A stretch of DNA of 20,000 nt. It comes from Atractiella rhizophila (taxonomy: Eukaryota). A program made the position numbers and the translations under genes. The notes below the pieces were generated by a model. The model saw only the letters and a list, made by a program, of their open reading frames with translations. It did no database searches and was not told the origin of the DNA. The DNA lies in the NCBI GenBank assembly GCA_021432655.1, contig MU271407.1:51625-71624 (forward strand), read 5' to 3'. Below are positions 1,930-20,000 of this stretch, one piece after another (the stretch's first letter is position 1; every line of letters starts with the position of its first letter).

Positions 1930-2422
1930 CGCCCATTCGCCTCTATGCCTGCCTCTGTCCTCTCCATCTTCCAACATTAGACAGAATGATGAGTTCTTCT
2001 TCTATTCTTCTGCATCTTCCCGCGATCATGTGATCTACAAGATCGATGCTGTTCATGACGTAACTTTTGACGTCGACCGTACCCAATGAAATGCTAAACC
2101 TCGTCTTGCTCCTTCACTTAGAGCCACTCAGACTTTCTTGAGAGGCATGTTAAGTCGAAGAAGACGCGCTGTGAGGAGGCAGGTAAATGCTCCCGTTGTC
2201 TTTTGCTTCGTGATACAAGGCATGGGGAATGATGGCCAGGATTGTTCAGCGGCGAAGTTTTGAGGAACGCACGTCATTCTTGCGCTGTTATCCCGACAAA
2301 AACAGGATACAGCGAGTGAATTGGGATACCTGAACAATTGCTGATGCAATAATTGAGCAGCTTCCACGCGTTTTCCTGGAATATCCTGACGTCTGCTTTG
2401 TTGATGCTTCCAACAGCAAGCC

Positions 2423-2429
2423 TATAAAA
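2423..2429 (+). promoter_or_regulatory. Putative TATA box of the CFEM-like gene
   Basis: TATAAAA followed by a pyrimidine-rich tract, about 110 nt upstream of ATG 2537. Confidence 0.55.
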
Positions 2430-2536
2430 AACCTGATCCTGATCCTTCCCTTTCCCTCATCTTCAACGCTTCAGCAGTTCTTCATTCGACTTTCGAGCTT
2501 TCGACGACTCTAACGAAACCCAAGAAATCAATCATC

Positions 2537-3502
2537 ATGATCTCCCTCCTCCTCAGCGCTCTCATCGCATCGGCCATCGCCACGCCTTACGGATACCCAG
2601 TCATCAAGCGCCAGTCCTTCCCCAACAACACTCCCTCTTGTGCTCCTTTCTGCCTCGCCGTCAAGATCACAGAACAGCCCTACCTAGCTCCAGGTACAAC
2701 TCCAGGAGATTTGGCGGCCGCTTGCAACGTTAGCAGCTTTACGGGTGCTTACGAGCAATGCTGCAGGGATCACTGCGTGCGTTTCCATTTTCTGTTAATC
2801 TGTTACTGTCGGAGTTTACTAATAAATCATTCACAGAGCAAGGATGACCTTCAAAATGCTCTCAACGCTGGAAGCGCGGTGTGCAAGTCTGCGCAAAACG
2901 GTTCGTCTTTCTAACATCTCCCTATACGTAATATCTAGCGTAATCTGACGACATCGAATGAATAGGAGACGCGCCGCCTCCTTCCTCTGTCGTCTCCAGT
3001 GCTAGCGCGGCCATCTCTTCCGTCCAATCCAGCGTCTCGTTCGTTCCCCCTCCTTCAAGCCTCAAGCCATGACGACTAACATCATGGAAACAGCCAAGAG
3101 GTAGCCTCCCTCTCCTCCTCAGCGTCCCAAGCTTCCGCCTCCGTTTCCTCTGTCGCATCCCAGCTCTCAGCCTCGCTCTCATCCGTCCGCTCCTCCCTTT
3201 CCTCTGCCGCTTCCCAGCAACTCGCATCCGCCACCTCTGCCAGTGGAGCGGCGAGCAGCATCCAGGCGAGCGTCTCTAGCGTGCTGAGCCAGGCTTCAGC
3301 GAGCGCAAGCAGTGTGTTGGCCGTACGTATTCCTGTCCTCCTTCCCAAAACACGTTTATCTCATCTTTCTTTCTCGATACAGAGCGCCACGTCTGCTGCT
3401 GCAACCCAGCAAACAAACTCAAACTCTCCGGCATCCACTCTCCAAGTCGAAAAGGCTGGAATTCTCCTTACTGTGGTCGGAGCTGTTGCTTTTATGCTCT
3501 AA
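2537..3502 (+). CDS. Secreted CFEM-like, Ser/Ala-rich, putatively GPI-anchored cell-surface protein (5 exons)
   Basis: Signal peptide MISLLLSALIASAIA, Kex2-like KR site, Cys pattern PSCAPFC...GDLAAAC...CCRDHC...VC, long Ser/Ala stalk and hydrophobic C-terminus (GILLTVVGAVAFML). Introns 2777-2836, 2901-2965, 3039-3093 and 3323-3382 are all GT-AG and keep the frame. Confidence 0.85.
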
Positions 3503-12762: not shown

Positions 12763-14671
12763 TCAAGGCTTCGACCTTCTGTTTGCCTCGAAATTCTCCC
12801 AAAAGAAAAGAGAACTCTCATTCCCCGACTCGTCGTCTTGATCAATGAACCAAATATCAACTTGCAGATAACCCAGACGGCAGAACATGCTGAATACTTT
12901 CCCTGACCTTGAGGGATCGTACTGGAGCGGATATTTGGTGTCTCCATAATACCTCTCATTGAACAATTCGACAGATGACACTGCCACCGAGTTGTGGAAA
13001 TTCCCTAAGGCTTTGGAAAACCAAGGGGTGGAAAAGTCGCAGTCTCCAAAGAATAGCTTCAACTGGACGACTAAACGTTGGTTTAACCTGTATGGCAGCA
13101 GTTTCTGGACCGTACCCAAGAATTGGCGGAGTCCGCTGGCTGAAAAATGGCAGTAAAGCAAAACAAGCTCTTGAAGGTTGTCCCAGCGAGCTTCGGCCTC
13201 TAAAAACGATTCAGAAATAAGATTCGAGTCCTCCATCCCCCCATCAAGGTACAGTGTGCTGGAATAATCCTGTTCGGAGAACCATTTACGGAGTTCATCG
13301 TCTAGGGGTCTTCTCAAACGTGACACCGTGTTACCTTTAGCACTATCTGAAAGCTGCTGGAAAGCACAACAAAGACCAAGCGGTTGAAAGATTTGCAACA
13401 TCTTGCCAAAGCCCCTTGCAGAAAACAGATAATAAAATGAGCTGAACCTGATCGTGGACAAACGGTATGATGGTTCATGCGTGTCAAGGATGCCACTGAA
13501 GTGCCCATCACAAAGGCAACACTGAAGGAGAGCCAAATGAGCCAAATGATCTTCGATCAGCGAGAATGGCTGTGCCAGTAAACGACCAGATATGGAAGGG
13601 GTCAGCCACGATATGGCGACAGACTCCGTAGACCTAGAGCTATAACTCGAGAAGCTGAGTATTTCTCCAAGAGAAAGTTCAGCTTGCTGATTTTGAAAGA
13701 AAAGTCCTAAAGATGCTGGTCCGAGCGAGGAAATAGATATCAGCATATCATGCAGATCGAAACCATCCCATGGTAAATTGTAAACCTGCACTTTCGTATT
13801 CCCTGAGTGCTTTGCAACAGCATCCAGTAAATGGAACCAAGATTTGTGCGATGGCGGAAGGGGACGACCTAAAGTCAACGTTGCGTCTTTCCCCCATTTC
13901 ATTAATCCATGTTCCACTGCCATATTCCGGAGATAACTGATGTTCAAAGTATAAGAGGAAAAGTTGTCAGCAAAAAGAGCACAGTAATGTTGTAGGATGG
14001 ATAGGGCTATATTTCTGAAAGCAGAGCAAATCGCCGTCAAGTTGCAAAACCGTGAAATAAACTCCTGATTCAGATCCTGGATGCGAGAGACTGGAGGCAA
14101 TAAAAAGTCGAATATGCGGAACAAATGTTCGATGGGTAGCTTGGCGATCGGAGACATTTGCGGAGCTCGTTTCAAAATTATGTTGCCACTTGCATCCTTC
14201 TGCCATCTTATCAAAGAGTGCTCTGCCGTGATGTTCCTGAGATAGCTAATGTTCACGGCATAAGAAGGAAAGCCATCAACAGCACAGTAATCTTCCAGGA
14301 CGGAGAGCGCTATTTTTCTGAATTTACAGCAAACTCCTCCAAAGATGCGAAGACGTGAAAGAAAATCTTGATTCAGATCCTGGATGCAAGCGACTGGAGG
14401 TACGGGAAGATCAAATACACGGCACAACAGCTCGATGGGCAGCAGTAAAATTGCAGTTTTCCGAGGTCGTGAGTACTTAGAGGGCCACTTCCTGCGAATC
14501 GGCTGTTCGTTGATCAAATTTAGGAAGTAGCCAAGCGATGCTGACTCTTGACTCAGTTTAGGAGCTCCAGCAGATAATCAACAAAATCTCACCAAGCTTG
14601 TGCTTGAACTTGAGCCTAGATGCCACAGATCCCAAGTGCTTCTTTCGCCGCCTCGGAAAGTGAAAAGTCAT
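12763..14671 (-). CDS. F-box-like/RNI-like LRR protein with a tandemly duplicated N-terminal module, ~618 aa
   Basis: ATG 14671 plus intron 14592-14541 (GTGAGA...CAG) splices in frame onto the 584-aa ORF. Two LPIE-L-R-F...C--FR-IAL motifs are F-box-like. The C-terminal half has LxxLxL-type repeats (HLAHLALLQC, STLYLDG, NLQELVLLYCHFSASGLRQFL). Confidence 0.75.
13882..14451 (-). repeat. Internal tandem duplication in the F-box-like gene (units ~14451-14191 and ~14148-13882, period ~303 nt)
   Basis: LPIELLCRVFDLPVPPVACIQDLNQDFLSR...NISYLRNITAEHSLIRWQKDA vs LPIEHLFRIFDFLLPPVSRIQDLNQEFISR...NISYLRNMAVEHGLMKWGKDA. The DNA string TGATTCAGATCCTGGATGC occurs in both copies. Confidence 0.92.
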
Positions 14672-16248
14672 GGAAAGGTCGGTGCGTGGAATTCGAAGTG
14701 CTGACAAAAATTGGTTGGATGCACCAGATGTCGTCTGTTTCGTAGGAGGTCACCTTGCTTGCTCTAGTGAGCTCAACTCATTAGCAAAAACTTAGGACCT
14801 TGCTTTTGTACGGCACAACGTCCGTACCCTTGTCTGTCCACGTCAGCATTTCCAATGTTCTAAATTTCATTATCCGCATTGCAAGAGCTGAACTCGCAAC
14901 TCGAGAGCTCAACTAAGACAATCCGAATGCCGTACCTCGGGTGCATCTATCCTCATCATAACTCACCACTTCAAGTCGCAGTGCTACATGGAACCTCATG
15001 CGGTACAACCGTGTCTAAAATAGGCCTGCAAGCACTCATTCCTACTACTTGATATCCCATCCAGTCAGAGCGATTCCGAACAGCGGGTGACTTGGTGACA
15101 ATAATTAATAGAAAGCCATTATGATACTAATTCTTTCTCTGTCGACAGCGGTTACGAACTCGTCTATCAAGTCAACTTGACTTGCCACTGTTGTCAGTCA
15201 CAAGAGCGACGCAAGGCTGCAAAATTCGTCCATGTATAGAACGCAGAACACAAATATCAATTCTCTGAAGATGAGAGCATTCAAATCAATTGTTCAGGGA
15301 ATACCTACTGCTGGAAAGCAGTAATGCTCAGTTTTGTCGTGGAGGGATCTACCTAAGTTTTAGACTGTTTCAGGTGGGAATCAACTGAGTTTATCGCAGT
15401 CTAACTTTTGCACCTTTCATCTTTAACCTTAATCAAATTAAATTTCTGCCCTTGCAGTCGCAACCGAATTATGCACCAACTCACTCCTAATTTTGATCCT
15501 CTCTGCCGCAGCATCTCTCACATCTTGCGTCTTCCACTCCTTTTTAGACCTGCTGTTGTTGCTGAGATAATGGTCCATTGGGAGCTAACGCCAGTGTCGA
15601 GATCCCGCAAACATGATTTTTACCACGGTACGAAAGCGTCTTGGGAGGACATGGCATGAGGATTGTGGACGACGAATTGGAATATTGGATCTGGATCCGT
15701 TCCCAGCTGTAGACAGAATAGAATGCCTTTCGTCCTAGTTGTTGCCTTGGTCTACGCTCAGTAGTACTTTAATGGCTTATGGATTAGTGGGATCCAAATT
15801 TCCTGTCCCTGGAGGAAGGACGCGCCGTTACCGCGCACAATCGGAATCGAACTTGCTGGCATAAGAGGAAGTGAAGCAAGAACGGGACTTGTCCTTCTTC
15901 GTACTCGAGTCAGCTTCATAGTATCCGAAATAATGAAGGGATAAGAAAGACGAACCAAGATCCTTCCTCTCCCTGGATGTCCTCATTGCTCAAGTGCAGA
16001 GAACACACGTCCCCGTCTTCTTTACAATTTGTGACTGTGAGGTGGTGGAAGAGGGCCAAAAGTTTCAAGCTTAAGACAATGGAAATAGAGTTAACTGCGG
16101 GACTTGAAGGCTAGACCAACAGTTAGAGAGTCTTTCAGAAATTATTTGACAGACCACGCACACGTGAGTCTTTTCCAATCTAAATTAACCAGTCGCAGAA
16201 AACTAGAGCAATATTTACGACATATTAAGCCGCTCCTCTGTGCTCTTG

Positions 16249-16599
16249 CTACAGTCGTAACCACGACGAGACCACCATCAGTACCTTGATCGCTCGACGC
16301 TTGCAACATCGTCGACGCTCCTTGGCCCTGCAGGATCTTCTGTGCAATATTTCCCCTGGTTTCAGACGTCGCATATCAAGTTGTTCAAACGCGCTGCCGA
16401 CGATCACGTGGGCGAGTAGGGAGGCAGTTGTCCTAACAGTTACCCGCTCCAGATCCGCGACCTTGCTATACGATTCGTATCCTGTAACCTTCCTGCGGCA
16501 GATGAAGGTGTTTCCATCTTCTTTCTCGTAGCTGAAAAAAATGGTACTCCCTAATGTGGATGAAATGTCATGTTTGCGAATATCGAATGGGACAGCCAT
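16249..16599 (-). CDS. Possible hypothetical gene or gene remnant
   Basis: ATG-initiated 116-aa ORF divergent from the 16909 gene. Splice-like signals occur downstream (e.g. GTTCGT...CTGAC...AAG near 15955-15900), but no coherent long model could be built. Confidence 0.25.
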   Translation of the reverse strand: MAVPFDIRKHDISSTLGSTIFFSYEKEDGNTFICRRKVTGYESYSKVADLERVTVRTTASLLAHVIVGSAFEQLDMRRLKPGEILHRRSCRAKERRRCCKRRAIKVLMVVSSWLRL

Positions 16600-16908
16600 G
16601 ACAGGGATCCTGTAAAGCGAAATATAAAGATCAGATGTCTTTTATAACGGCAGGATTAGAGCGGTAGATTATGATCGTTTCCCCTATTTTGCAACTTCGG
16701 ATCCGCAACCCTTCCCGCAGAATTGCTCCCTCCTACCAACAAAGCCAACTACCCCAAGATTCCCCTACCTTCAATTAGCTGTGTGGTGTAACGTTGTTTT
16801 GGCAACTTGTACGTTATTCTCTCCTGATAATGACTTATTCTGACAGTTTGACTTCTAGCTTCTTACACTGAGGCTTCACTTCTTGCACGTCTTGTATAAT
16901 CATTTGAT

Positions 16909-17967
16909 ATGCCGTCCTCCTCCACCACTCTGCCAGGACAAGCTATAGGGGCAGCTTATCCAAATCTACAGCAGATTGAGTCTGTCAAACTCACTATGCT
17001 AGCAAAACAATGGCAACACCTCCTTCCAGCCTATACGAACCGAGTAGAACCTCCTATTCCCTTCCTCCAAGCCCAAGCATTCGAAGCGACTTACAAATGC
17101 TCTGCTTGTTGGGTCTACCTGGGTGTTTTAGAGAAGGGCCGCCATCACAATTGTTCTGGGGCGGAAAGATTTCGCAACGATCTGAAGGCAGTAATAGTGC
17201 GATTAGAAGCTGGAGAAGATCCTTACGACGCAGACTATGTCTCTCCATCTCGTCTTGCTGTCATTAAATGGGAAAATAATCTCATCGATCCATTTCTTTC
17301 CTCTGGTTCTGCTGTGACACCACCCGCATCTCCGGCATCGACTCCACGCAAGAGAAAAAGAGAACAACCATTCTCAACTCCTGGAGAAAGAGATCGCTCT
17401 TTCAACCGTACAATGGCAAGCTTGCAGAGTAAGGTGTGGACTATACTCCTTCATTTTGATGTTTACACTAAGAATGTTTGATTTCAGTTGCCCAAGTATG
17501 AGCATACGTCAAATGGGAATATGCTGGTTGTTGCATTTCCGTAAGTCCTCTCCTCTCTTTAAGCCCAAACCTATACTCACGTAAATTGTTACATTCCCAG
17601 CGCCGATCCTCCTCCTGCTCTTCGTGATGCCAGGGTGCTAACAGACGCTGAACTACGCGAAATCGTACAAAATGCCATTACCATCACAGCTTCCTCTGTG
17701 TTCACTTCGGACGAGGAGTTCCCAATGTTCAAGAACCTTATCAAAGGTTATGTCACTCAGAAAGCGTCTGCATATTGGGCTAAAAATGCAGATGAAGCGG
17801 TAGCAGCCAGTAGTGCGATGCGAGCTAAGCTTACAAATTGGGAGGAAGTGAGTAACTTCCTTTCTTCTAGACCATACCTAGTACTGAGGTTGATACAGGT
17901 TGTTATGAACCAAGATCAATTGCGCACCGGTCCTGACGCGCCAGGCTCTAGTCAGGAATCGCCCTGA
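16909..17967 (+). CDS. Unknown ~297-aa protein with a CxxC-x11-HHxC putative Zn-binding motif and NLS; candidate transposon accessory gene (4 exons)
   Basis: Exons 16909-17433, 17488-17540, 17601-17847 and 17899-17967 with canonical GT-AG introns keep one frame. Motif YKCSACWVYLGVLEKGRHHNC, NLS-like PRKRKRE, helical C-terminus. Confidence 0.75.
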
Positions 17968-18058
17968 TTACTTACGGCAGTACATGTTCTTATATTCTTC
18001 TTCTCTTGATTTGTACATCGTATTCATTGATCAGAATGTAAATTTACATCGTAATACA

Positions 18059-19968
18059 TCATGATCCTAGACCAGTCGCAGGTGGGAAGTGACTGGCTCC
18101 ACGAGAACGAAGTAATAAAATTCGATTGTGAATCAAGAGATGAATGCGAAGATAGCGATTGGCTTGTTCTTGATGCATGAAAGACAGAGATTTTTCGATC
18201 TTTTTGACAGTCAAGTTTCCTACCTCACAGAGAGAGCTGCGTATAGCATAATATGATGGATTAGTGGCCATGTAATGAGCTAGCAATGTCGCAGCGGAGC
18301 AGGAAACGTGGTTGATTCCATGGAGCTCATCGGTTAAAAAAAGACTCTTCCGAAAAAATTGATACTCCCTGGCCATGCAATACCGATGCAGCTGACACGC
18401 ATAATCGTAGACGATGATGTCGGGAGCGATGAGGAAATGGCAGAACAGAACAGAGAAAAAGTCATTTCTTCCCTCATGGTTGGGGATAAGATGAAATCCT
18501 AGGCAGAAACCGTGGAGCAAGCACCATAAGATGAAGACACCGCCAGTCCTATCTCGCTTCTTTTTGGTTTCCTTGTCAAACTCTTTAGATGGACAACCTG
18601 CTCCTAAGTTGTCGCTGGGAGAATCTTGCTGACCATCGTTGATAAAGTTGGCATAGAAAGGGCGTTCACGAATTTTAGGCAAAAAGTACTCGTATCCACT
18701 GTAGACTGGATTAGGCTGGGCTGTCTCAAAAAGTTGAGTGTGGTAAGGTCCATCAGGTCCATCCGGCTCATATAGCGGTCCAACTACTGAAGTTTGTGTG
18801 GTAGAGCAAGGTAAAAGCTGAGGGAGGCGAGGAAATCTTCGGGTCTGGTCATCCTTGCAATTCTCAAGATAATTTTGAAAAGATTGAAGCCTGGAAACAA
18901 AAAAAGCAGCCAAAGACGCAAAGGCTGGAATGCTCTTCTTGATCGTAGCCTCTTCAGCTAGCCTCGCGCGTTCTAGAATATCGCCGTAAGATGGAAACTG
19001 TTGCTTGATCCGGAGTATTAATAGCCAGCTTTTTTTGCTAGACAATGTTGGGTCTTGCAGTTGTTCGTTAGTGAGAGCCTGCAGACAAGGTAATAGATCA
19101 TCGGCGACCACTTGTGTGATCCAATCGGGAGAGGTCAGGATTTCAAGAAGGATGCGAAGTTTGGCTTGGAATGCACGAACTGGGTTCACAAAAATCGTGC
19201 CATCAATTGTAGGGTCCATTGACATGATAATTGCCATTGCTGTCAACCCATGAAGAGCAAGCCACAGGGAGTCCATGTCTGGACCCTTGATTTGTCCGAA
19301 TGACAAACGGTCTGCATCTTCAGGATTGTTCTGATCCTGATCGTAAATGAGATCTTGTTTTGTACTCCGTGTCTTGGTTTGTCTTGCTCCTTCTGACACG
19401 TCCTGCATCTTCTCTACCTTCCTAACCCTAGGAGCTATGGCTTGGACGAGGCGGGAATCAAGGCAAGGTAGTGTGATAACAGGCAGGTTTAAAGTGGATG
19501 CCTTCCTCTGCTTCAAGCTGTCGAGAAGTGCATTAGCTAAAGATTTCCAGTCTTCAGCTTTGATGGGAATTCGAAGTTGAGCAGCTTCTTTTCCTAATAG
19601 TGCTTTCAGGTGATTCGACAGAGAAATCCAAGGTAAACAGATGCGAATGTTAGTTGGTGGTAGCCTGGTGTAATCTGGAAAGTCTGGATTTGGTTTGCTC
19701 GGTGGTTGAAGTTCAGCTGTGAATAGATCTTTGTAGGAACCAGACATTTTGCCATCGCCTCCCACGACCTTATAGCTATCGTTGGGACAGAGTGGACAAT
19801 GAAAGCGTTCGTTAAAATCAAGGAGGTCCAAGTAGCGATAGTAGGCTGCAAGAATGACCGGAAAACTGGGAAGGTCAAAAGGAGACGCATGGTTTTTGTA
19901 GATGCTCTGCATTTTCCAGTACTCGCCATTAATCGTCATAGATTGGCGAGAGGCAAGAAGGAATGAAA
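18059..19968 (-). CDS. KDZ (Kyakuja-Dileera-Zisupton)-type DDE transposase, last exon; 5' part lies beyond the window
   Basis: Uninterrupted frame with FHCPLC..VVGGDGK (first acidic residue D62 of the 626-aa ORF), TGGVFILWCLLHGFCLGFHLIPNHEGRNDFF, IIVYDYAC (D512), DELHGINHVSC and SSLCEVGN (E572), which are the hallmark motifs of KDZ transposases. An intron acceptor (CTCAC...TTCTAG, ending 19969) precedes the exon. Confidence 0.85.
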
Positions 19969-20000
19969 CTAGAAGTTCGTGAGTGAATAAGAATTTGTTA

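Follow-up and report, generated by a model that had tools for sequence, protein, structure and literature searches.

A probable recently mobile Zisupton-type KDZ DNA transposon in Atractiella rhizophila

KDZ elements are described as widespread and often large, with accessory genes (PMC12477816, PMC5751038, PMC9297572). Judged by its published description, the closest known system to the one reported here is KDZx1 of Cryptococcus deneoformans, which combines KDZ, CxC4 and SWIM, has been filed as Zisupton and was seen to jump (PMC11343200). The same description gives KDZx1 a length of 6,397 bp, two frames (the second a gene of unknown kind) and 8-bp duplications, and reports no terminal repeats detected (PMC11343200). 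In a further published account, Zisupton elements have 8-bp duplications and terminal repeats, a Dileera element has an 8-bp duplication, and Kyakuja has a 7-bp duplication with CA..TG ends and without terminal repeats (PMC12730594).

The locus analysed here lies in a 20,000-base stretch at the end of an A. rhizophila contig, referred to below as the window. We put the probability at roughly 0.87 that the long frame in this window encodes the catalytic half of a transposase belonging to a Zisupton-type KDZ DNA transposon that has moved recently, with zinc motifs, CxC4 and an RNase H-fold DDE core. By description, the element resembles KDZx1 in having a CxC4-type KDZ protein with a candidate SWIM-like zinc motif, an 8-bp duplication and at least one extra gene. 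It differs from KDZx1 as described in its length (9,625 bp versus 6,397), its imperfect 40-bp repeats and its cargo of at least two genes. Like Zisupton elements as characterised in PMC12730594, it is large, with an 8-bp duplication, terminal repeats and passenger genes, and it is provisionally filed under that clade. Unlike Kyakuja in that account, it has G...C ends, terminal repeats and 8 bp at its complete locus, not 7 bp and CA..TG. When its 5' end was compared by eye with fourteen KDZ consensus starts given in the supplement of PMC12730594, none was similar. Unlike the Cryptococcus Dileera elements (KDZ1-3), the protein is without CxC1, which is absent among the Pfam matches at E <= 1 on its 976-codon frame, where CxC4 is listed instead. 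HMGXB3 is a vertebrate domesticated KDZ relative of the CxC4-type family. The present protein differs from HMGXB3 in belonging to a multi-copy mobile element and in having no HMG box by Pfam on the 976-codon frame.

The frame occupies window positions 18059-19999 on the reverse strand and comprises 646 codons with zero internal stops in translation, an open run with a chance of about 2e-15 at this base composition. It is the 3' part of the transposase main exon and is cut at its 5' side, since the end of the window is also the end of contig C228 (71,624 bases). A preliminary description of this DNA had reported a stop-free exon of more than 630 codons with a series of named residues, numbered from Met21, so that frame positions are its numbers plus 20. 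Its D62, C449, C473, H476, D512, H540, H544, C547 and E572 are D82, C469, C493, H496, D532, H560, H564, C567 and E592 of the frame, and every one is present. It had also suggested looking beyond the right edge of the window for an N-terminal CxC domain. This was recovered from a sister copy on contig C141, which lengthens the frame to 976 codons and carries CxC4 (PF18717) at residues 250-370 (E 9.7e-15; 55 bits, where the cut-off is 26.9). Window residues 1-40 correspond to residues 331-370 of that match, so the window holds only the C-terminal 40 residues of the CxC4 cluster (19880-19999, reverse strand), the remainder falling past the contig end. From the sister copies, the whole transposase would be about 1,145-1,155 aa long.

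The Pfam comparison suggested in the preliminary description was borne out for CxC4, in the sister copy on C141, and fell short for KDZ (PF18758), which matches the frame at E 0.0027 and 17.9 bits against a cut-off of 26.6. Only one of thirteen relatives from the same search reaches the KDZ cut-off, so that model fits the clade poorly, whereas CxC4 passes its cut-off in all thirteen relatives scanned; a weak KDZ score is therefore normal for this clade. A full HMMER search with the 976-codon frame returned 1,580 representatives at E <= 0.001, and the closest non-self relative among the matches listed is 35% identical. Word-index protein searches were nearly blind to the family, finding four proteins among 8,000 candidates and none among 3,195 longer ones, and only the self match was found when the alignment served as query. 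UniRef names were available for nine of ten relatives looked up, and all nine clusters are from basidiomycetes, the group in which the preliminary description had placed the expansion of these enzymes.

Conservation was assessed in an alignment of seventy-five relatives, namely 73 of the 148 listed non-self matches (600-1,300 residues) and two from the word-index search. D82 and D532 each occur in 74 of these relatives, and E592 in all 75. D82 lies with C68-x2-C71 (each cysteine in 74/75) at 19754-19798, on the strand that the model places at residues 78-84. C469, the TGG strand 2 (487-493), W-C493-x2-H496, strand 3 (499-505) and the invariant E509 (75/75) follow at 18473-18595; C469, C493 and H496 are each present in 73/75. 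D532 is encoded at 18404-18406, at the end of strand 4 (528-531), and E592 at 18224-18226, in the helix after strand 5 (590-600). Between these two acidic residues, D557-x2-H560-x3-H564-x2-C567 (18299-18331) is kept in 75, 75, 74 and 74 of 75, by residue; all of these features are on the reverse strand. C68, C71, C469, C493 and H496 are candidate zinc ligands. N-terminal to the core is a CxC-x12-CxH motif, found in 57-60 of the 75 relatives, which we take to resemble the SWIM pattern; together with a second C...CxH motif, also upstream, the range is 57-64 of 75. The Pfam SWIM model has no match on the 976-codon frame of this protein and matches one of thirteen relatives weakly (E 0.026). Two relatives have other domains of their own: P0085 carries an extra SET domain (E 8.8e-08, over cut-off), and P0090 has weak OTU and Ulp1 protease matches.

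A structure model of the frame, built from a 98-row alignment (pLDDT 78, pTM 0.81), has strands at 78-84, 487-493, 499-505, 528-531 and 553-556 and a helix at 590-600. The predicted succession is that of an RNase H fold, in which D82 sits on the first strand, D532 comes after the fourth, and E592 lies in the helix that follows strand 5. In a wide structural search the top match was the ISCth4 transposase (PDB 6xg8; rmsd 3.8 over 217 aligned residues) at Z 9.8, which is only moderately over the background described for the tool, and DDE transposases or integrases filled fifteen of the top seventeen rows. Most of these DDE rows align about 140 residues, spread across 70-635, so the core is matched across the insert that divides it. 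The modelled RNase H core thus matches those of DDE transposases and integrases, and is like that of ISCth4 (IS256/Mutator group), Tn5, TnsB, MuA and the integrases. Foldseek with the whole model returned nothing at E <= 0.001, and a PDB sequence search with the 98-row profile gave a best E of 0.22 and nothing usable; no solved KDZ structure was found by the profile search, Foldseek or the wide structural search. The putative catalytic triad D82/D532/E592 is assigned by conservation together with strand position, E509 and D557 being equally invariant. The preliminary description's central claim, a KDZ-type RNase H-fold DDE transposase with a full triad, agrees with the CxC4 match, the likeness of the predicted core to DDE enzymes and the conservation of the three residues.

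The element itself could be delimited from copies elsewhere in the genome, and its full length is 9,625 bases. It reads 5'-GTATAAAT...TATATTC-3' at its termini, with G...C ends. The 5' end, GTATAAATAAATGG, is identical to the base at C141:83940, C399:1960 and C95:64769, and the 3' end, ...TATATATATATTC, lies at C366:38268 and recurs to the base on solo fragments on C242 and C260. The terminal inverted repeats are imperfect, matching at 30 of 40 positions, a score reached by none of 200,000 shuffles. The 8-bp target duplication CCTTGACT is read across two contigs, standing before the 5' end on C141 and, on C366, after the 3' end. Although the repetition includes a ninth base, the duplication was set at 8 because of the register of the terminal repeats and the two solo 3' ends. 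An early reading of a 7-bp duplication, as in Kyakuja, was dropped when the true 3' end was found on C366. An element-free join of the C141 and C366 flanks is present on C1035, where identity is 89-95% and a few bases around the site are affected by small indels.

The protein matches at about 100% in two further places, on C141 and C366. At the DNA level, the window copy and C141 are 99.6% identical, and C141 and C366 are 99.5% identical over 8,314 bases. Contig depths over element and flank were 366 and 133 in run X1 and 241.5 and 90.2 in run X2, rough figures from one sample, so that the element stands at 2.7 times its flank in both, in agreement with about three copies. We therefore count about three near-identical copies, among which those on C141 and C366 may be alleles, a tandem pair or two loci. 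Identity of at least 99.5% over the main body points to recent movement, and the copy-number check raised in the preliminary description, together with its suggestion of recent activity, fits about three copies 99.5% alike with defined ends and a target duplication, marks of past movement left in the sequence. Solo ends of the family were noted at L035:4769 (C95), L059:7489-7562 (C242) and L060:8051-8120 (C260), and no pairing of these was found by their flanking 8 bases. With the window copy included, there are more one-ended forms than complete ones. The bases CCT after the C242 fragment are the first three of the C141/C366 target duplication. On C366, a 71-base tandem duplication (L050:7394-7535) lies in the 3' segment of the long copies.

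The transposon part of the window runs from 16432 to 20000 on the reverse strand (element positions 3093 to about 6662), and its 5' end is on C399:1-1960. C399 begins within the element, holds the 5' end and runs into the same tandem gene cluster that forms the left flank in the window. Compared with C141, the window is 99.6% identical over 3,573 bases from 16429, where identity stops sharply and unrelated flanks begin; C141 and C366 continue for 2.96 kb past this break. The window copy is thus without the last 2.96 kb and one terminal repeat, and keeps only the 5' repeat. At the break, CAGTTGT (16425-16431, forward strand) supplies seven of the eight target-duplication bases, and C399 from 1961 onward begins CAGTTGTG. 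At the filled site, CAGTTGT stands to the left of the element and CAGTTGTG to its right, while empty paralogous sites at C399:7844 and on C111 have one copy, reading GGCAGTTGTGAGCGG. TGT at 16429-16431 is common to the duplication and to the internal sequence of the element at the break, a 3-base microhomology.

The simplest history is a full-length insertion with an 8-bp duplication, followed by loss of the 3' 2.96 kb through repair at the microhomology. The short form is the derived one, because in the long copies cargo gene 2 reads across the point where the window copy ends. The window copy would have inserted full length at CAGTTGTG in the tandem F-box-like gene cluster and later lost its 3' part; the flush break fits excision or a one-end cut, then incomplete gap repair. 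The position of the break inside the duplication likewise suggests that the transposase cut at that end and that the gap was incompletely repaired, which is how deletion derivatives of other DNA transposons have been proposed to arise (PMC3814204).

The strongest rival to this history is that the window copy is the direct insertion of a 6.66-kb sub-element with a cryptic internal end and a 7-bp (Kyakuja-like) or 4-bp duplication. CAGTTGT is exactly duplicated around the 6.66-kb unit, and published Kyakuja elements have 7-bp duplications without terminal repeats (PMC12730594). The internal break, however, matches the terminal repeat at only 8-12 of 40 positions (five registers), against 30/40 at the true end; it cuts cargo gene 2 after 57 codons, and only one copy with that end was found. 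In the long form, moreover, the duplication measures 8 bp and the ends are G...C instead of CA...TG. We consider such a sub-element unlikely and retain the full-length insertion with later loss. The window copy is then one-ended and probably immobile now, and could yet supply enzyme in trans; an open, intact frame need not mean a mobile copy.

On the general model of DDE-transposase biochemistry, the N-terminal zinc modules would bind the terminal repeats, D82, D532 and E592 would coordinate two metal ions for cleaving the ends of the element and attaching them to the target strands with a stagger of 8 bp, after which repair by the host would produce the target duplication. We also offer, as a doubtful extension, the idea that CxC4-type Zisupton transposases are a eukaryotic offshoot of IS256/Mutator that carry a large helical bundle at an unusual place, the strand 1-strand 2 hairpin, and often cut a single end at a time, with the window junction and the solo ends on C95, C242 and C260 as asymmetric by-products.

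The feature that separates this protein from solved DDE enzymes is its large insert between strands 1 and 2. ISCth4-type and other solved DDE enzymes carry a helical insertion between strand 5 and the Glu helix; here, strand 5 to the Glu spans only about 35 residues. By alignment and model, the insertion covers residues 86-430 (18710-19744, reverse strand). The preliminary figure of about 380 residues is a fair one, D82 to C469 being 387 and D82 to the TGG strand 403. Among the 74 relatives with the Asp, the D82-to-TGG distance has a median of 274.5 and a range of 82-387. Most of the excess falls in two stretches, residues 141-271, with 131 residues where the median is 50, and residues 386-430, with 45 where the median is 18, each measured in 93 of the 97 relatives having both Asp. 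Predicted secondary structure consists of helices and loops. A profile made from the inserts of 91 relatives, with the query left out, scores 22.6 bits on this insert, against 7.1 bits for the best of 500 shuffled inserts, which identifies it as a homologue of a domain present throughout the family. By this comparison it is an enlarged form of a helical domain also carried by relatives; the earlier characterisation as long and mostly helical stands, and the insert is not peculiar to this copy.

Folded alone, the insert gives a helical bundle at pLDDT 66.6. Against 48,161 chains its best match was Avd (Z 7.2, rmsd 2.7, 96 aligned), with none at Z >= 8 and the matches being generic bundles, and Foldseek returned no match at E <= 0.001. 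These results accord with the earlier remark that the insert has no recognisable domain, and at a model pLDDT of 66.6 the structural search neither names nor excludes a fold. Hanging off the strand 1-strand 2 hairpin, the bundle would most likely make multimer or DNA contacts. It is very unlikely that the extra length is an unspliced in-frame intron and that the protein is of the usual family length. The extra residues do fall in low-confidence, badly aligned stretches (pLDDT <50 at 165-181, 208-236 and 385-422). Much of the added length is nevertheless predicted as long helices, and a scan for in-frame G[TC]..AG introns of 39-129 bases with a branch point found two in frame and none within residues 83-456; the two candidates cover conserved sequence, the N-terminal stretch and C469, respectively.

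The element adds a fully delimited, recently mobile CxC4-type Zisupton transposon with terminal repeats, of which the literature surveyed has few complete ones. The surprise is limited, because the class, the 8-bp duplication, the cargo and mobility in basidiomycetes are already published. On the doubtful extension offered above, an element of this kind, small, without TET, recently mobile and with known ends, would be convenient for first KDZ biochemistry and structure. It could be used to ask what the insert does, given that no solved KDZ structure was found and that the insert is family-wide without an assigned role.

The preliminary description had called the transposase apparently intact. 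This holds for the reading frame in the assembled parts, but the element is without its 3' end, and element positions 1991-3092 of this copy (1,102 bases), with intron 1, the zinc motifs and most of CxC4, are in the contig gap. Inside the frame there is no decay, as had been claimed: twelve sites differ among the three assembled copies within 1,941 bases, and at each of them the window copy carries the majority base. The first 160 codons, on C399, are also open. The copy on C366 has a stop at codon 482; that on C141 is open throughout, has GC instead of GT at the intron 1 donor and ends 117 bases short of the 3' end. With the gap in the window copy, none of the assembled copies can be shown to be both whole and free of defects. 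Both contigs of the window copy break within the element, in an assembly of 1,998 contigs, and its one-ended form could in principle be an artefact of a collapsed repeat. This is highly improbable: an 87-base contig bridges the junction (16372-16458) without differences in both X1 and X2, at depths near those of the flank (113 against 133 and 71 against 90), and in X2 a contig of 6,665 bases, the length of the shared unit, begins at 16429. As X1 and X2 come from one sample, which may be the assembly source, they show only that reads hold the junction.

Of the coding changes between C141 and C366, fourteen are silent and fifteen are not; dN/dS is about 0.32 (P 0.002 for departure from neutrality), the pattern expected of lineages that descended through functional transposases. 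None of the contigs of run X3, whose kind is unrecorded, covers the transposase, and this says nothing on expression either way. The other suggestion of the preliminary description was domestication, here taken as a host gene of the HMGXB3 type with its catalytic residues retained. In its favour are the open frame, in which every conserved residue is present, a dN/dS under 1 from copy to copy, and the UniRef name 'HMG domain-containing protein' on three of the ten relatives looked up. It is already largely refuted and scarcely credible: the flanks of the roughly three near-identical copies are unrelated, the ends are sharp and defined, and there are terminal inverted repeats, a target duplication, empty sites and a nonsense change in one copy; no conserved orthologue is in view, the best non-self relative being only 35% identical.

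Cargo gene 1 lies on the forward strand, convergent with the transposase, at 16909-17967. Its four exons (16909-17433, 17488-17540, 17601-17847 and 17899-17967) are open when spliced at GT..AG and encode 297 aa. Contigs from run X3 pass over two of its introns, the first and the third, and over a GT..AG segment of 50 bases lying upstream, as cDNA would. The first 57 codons of cargo gene 2 are on the reverse strand at 16429-16599; in the long copies it runs on into the 2.96-kb segment with a 339-codon frame, and an X3 contig of 1,842 bases covers 16429-16672 and then enters the lost segment. In the window, cargo gene 2 instead reads into host DNA and stops at 16249, and the truncation thereby makes a chimeric 116-codon frame (16249-16599, reverse strand) of 57 cargo codons and 59 host codons. 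Additional frames are present in the first 1.5 kb of the element at its 5' side and in the last 1 kb at its 3' side. Exons 1 and 3 of cargo gene 1 have no Pfam match, none of eight cargo frames has one near cut-off, and the ESM Atlas gave no usable match for exon 1 of cargo gene 1 or for the frame of 339 codons in cargo gene 2, which has no other relative in the genome.

A search for TET/JBP (PF12851) inside the element found none, with the reservation that a very divergent type could be missed; in this the element is unlike the TET-carrying fungal KDZ families. Three TET/JBP-like matches elsewhere in the genome, on C193, C447 and C15 (L064, L065 and L066), are below cut-off. The association with TET/JBP genes mentioned in the preliminary description finds no support in this element, the three weak matches being on other contigs. 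At C14:129400-134850 (L019) lies a relative from another subfamily that has decayed; it is broken by stops and frameshifts, and its CxC4 and catalytic parts are about 4.5 kb apart. In the host DNA beside the transposon, a 604-codon frame (12763-14577, reverse strand) has a weak F-box-like match (E 0.063). It belongs to a tandem family with paralogues 65-81% identical on C399, C979, C111, C108 and other contigs, and the transposon sits in a repeated unit adjoining this frame (15404-16431).
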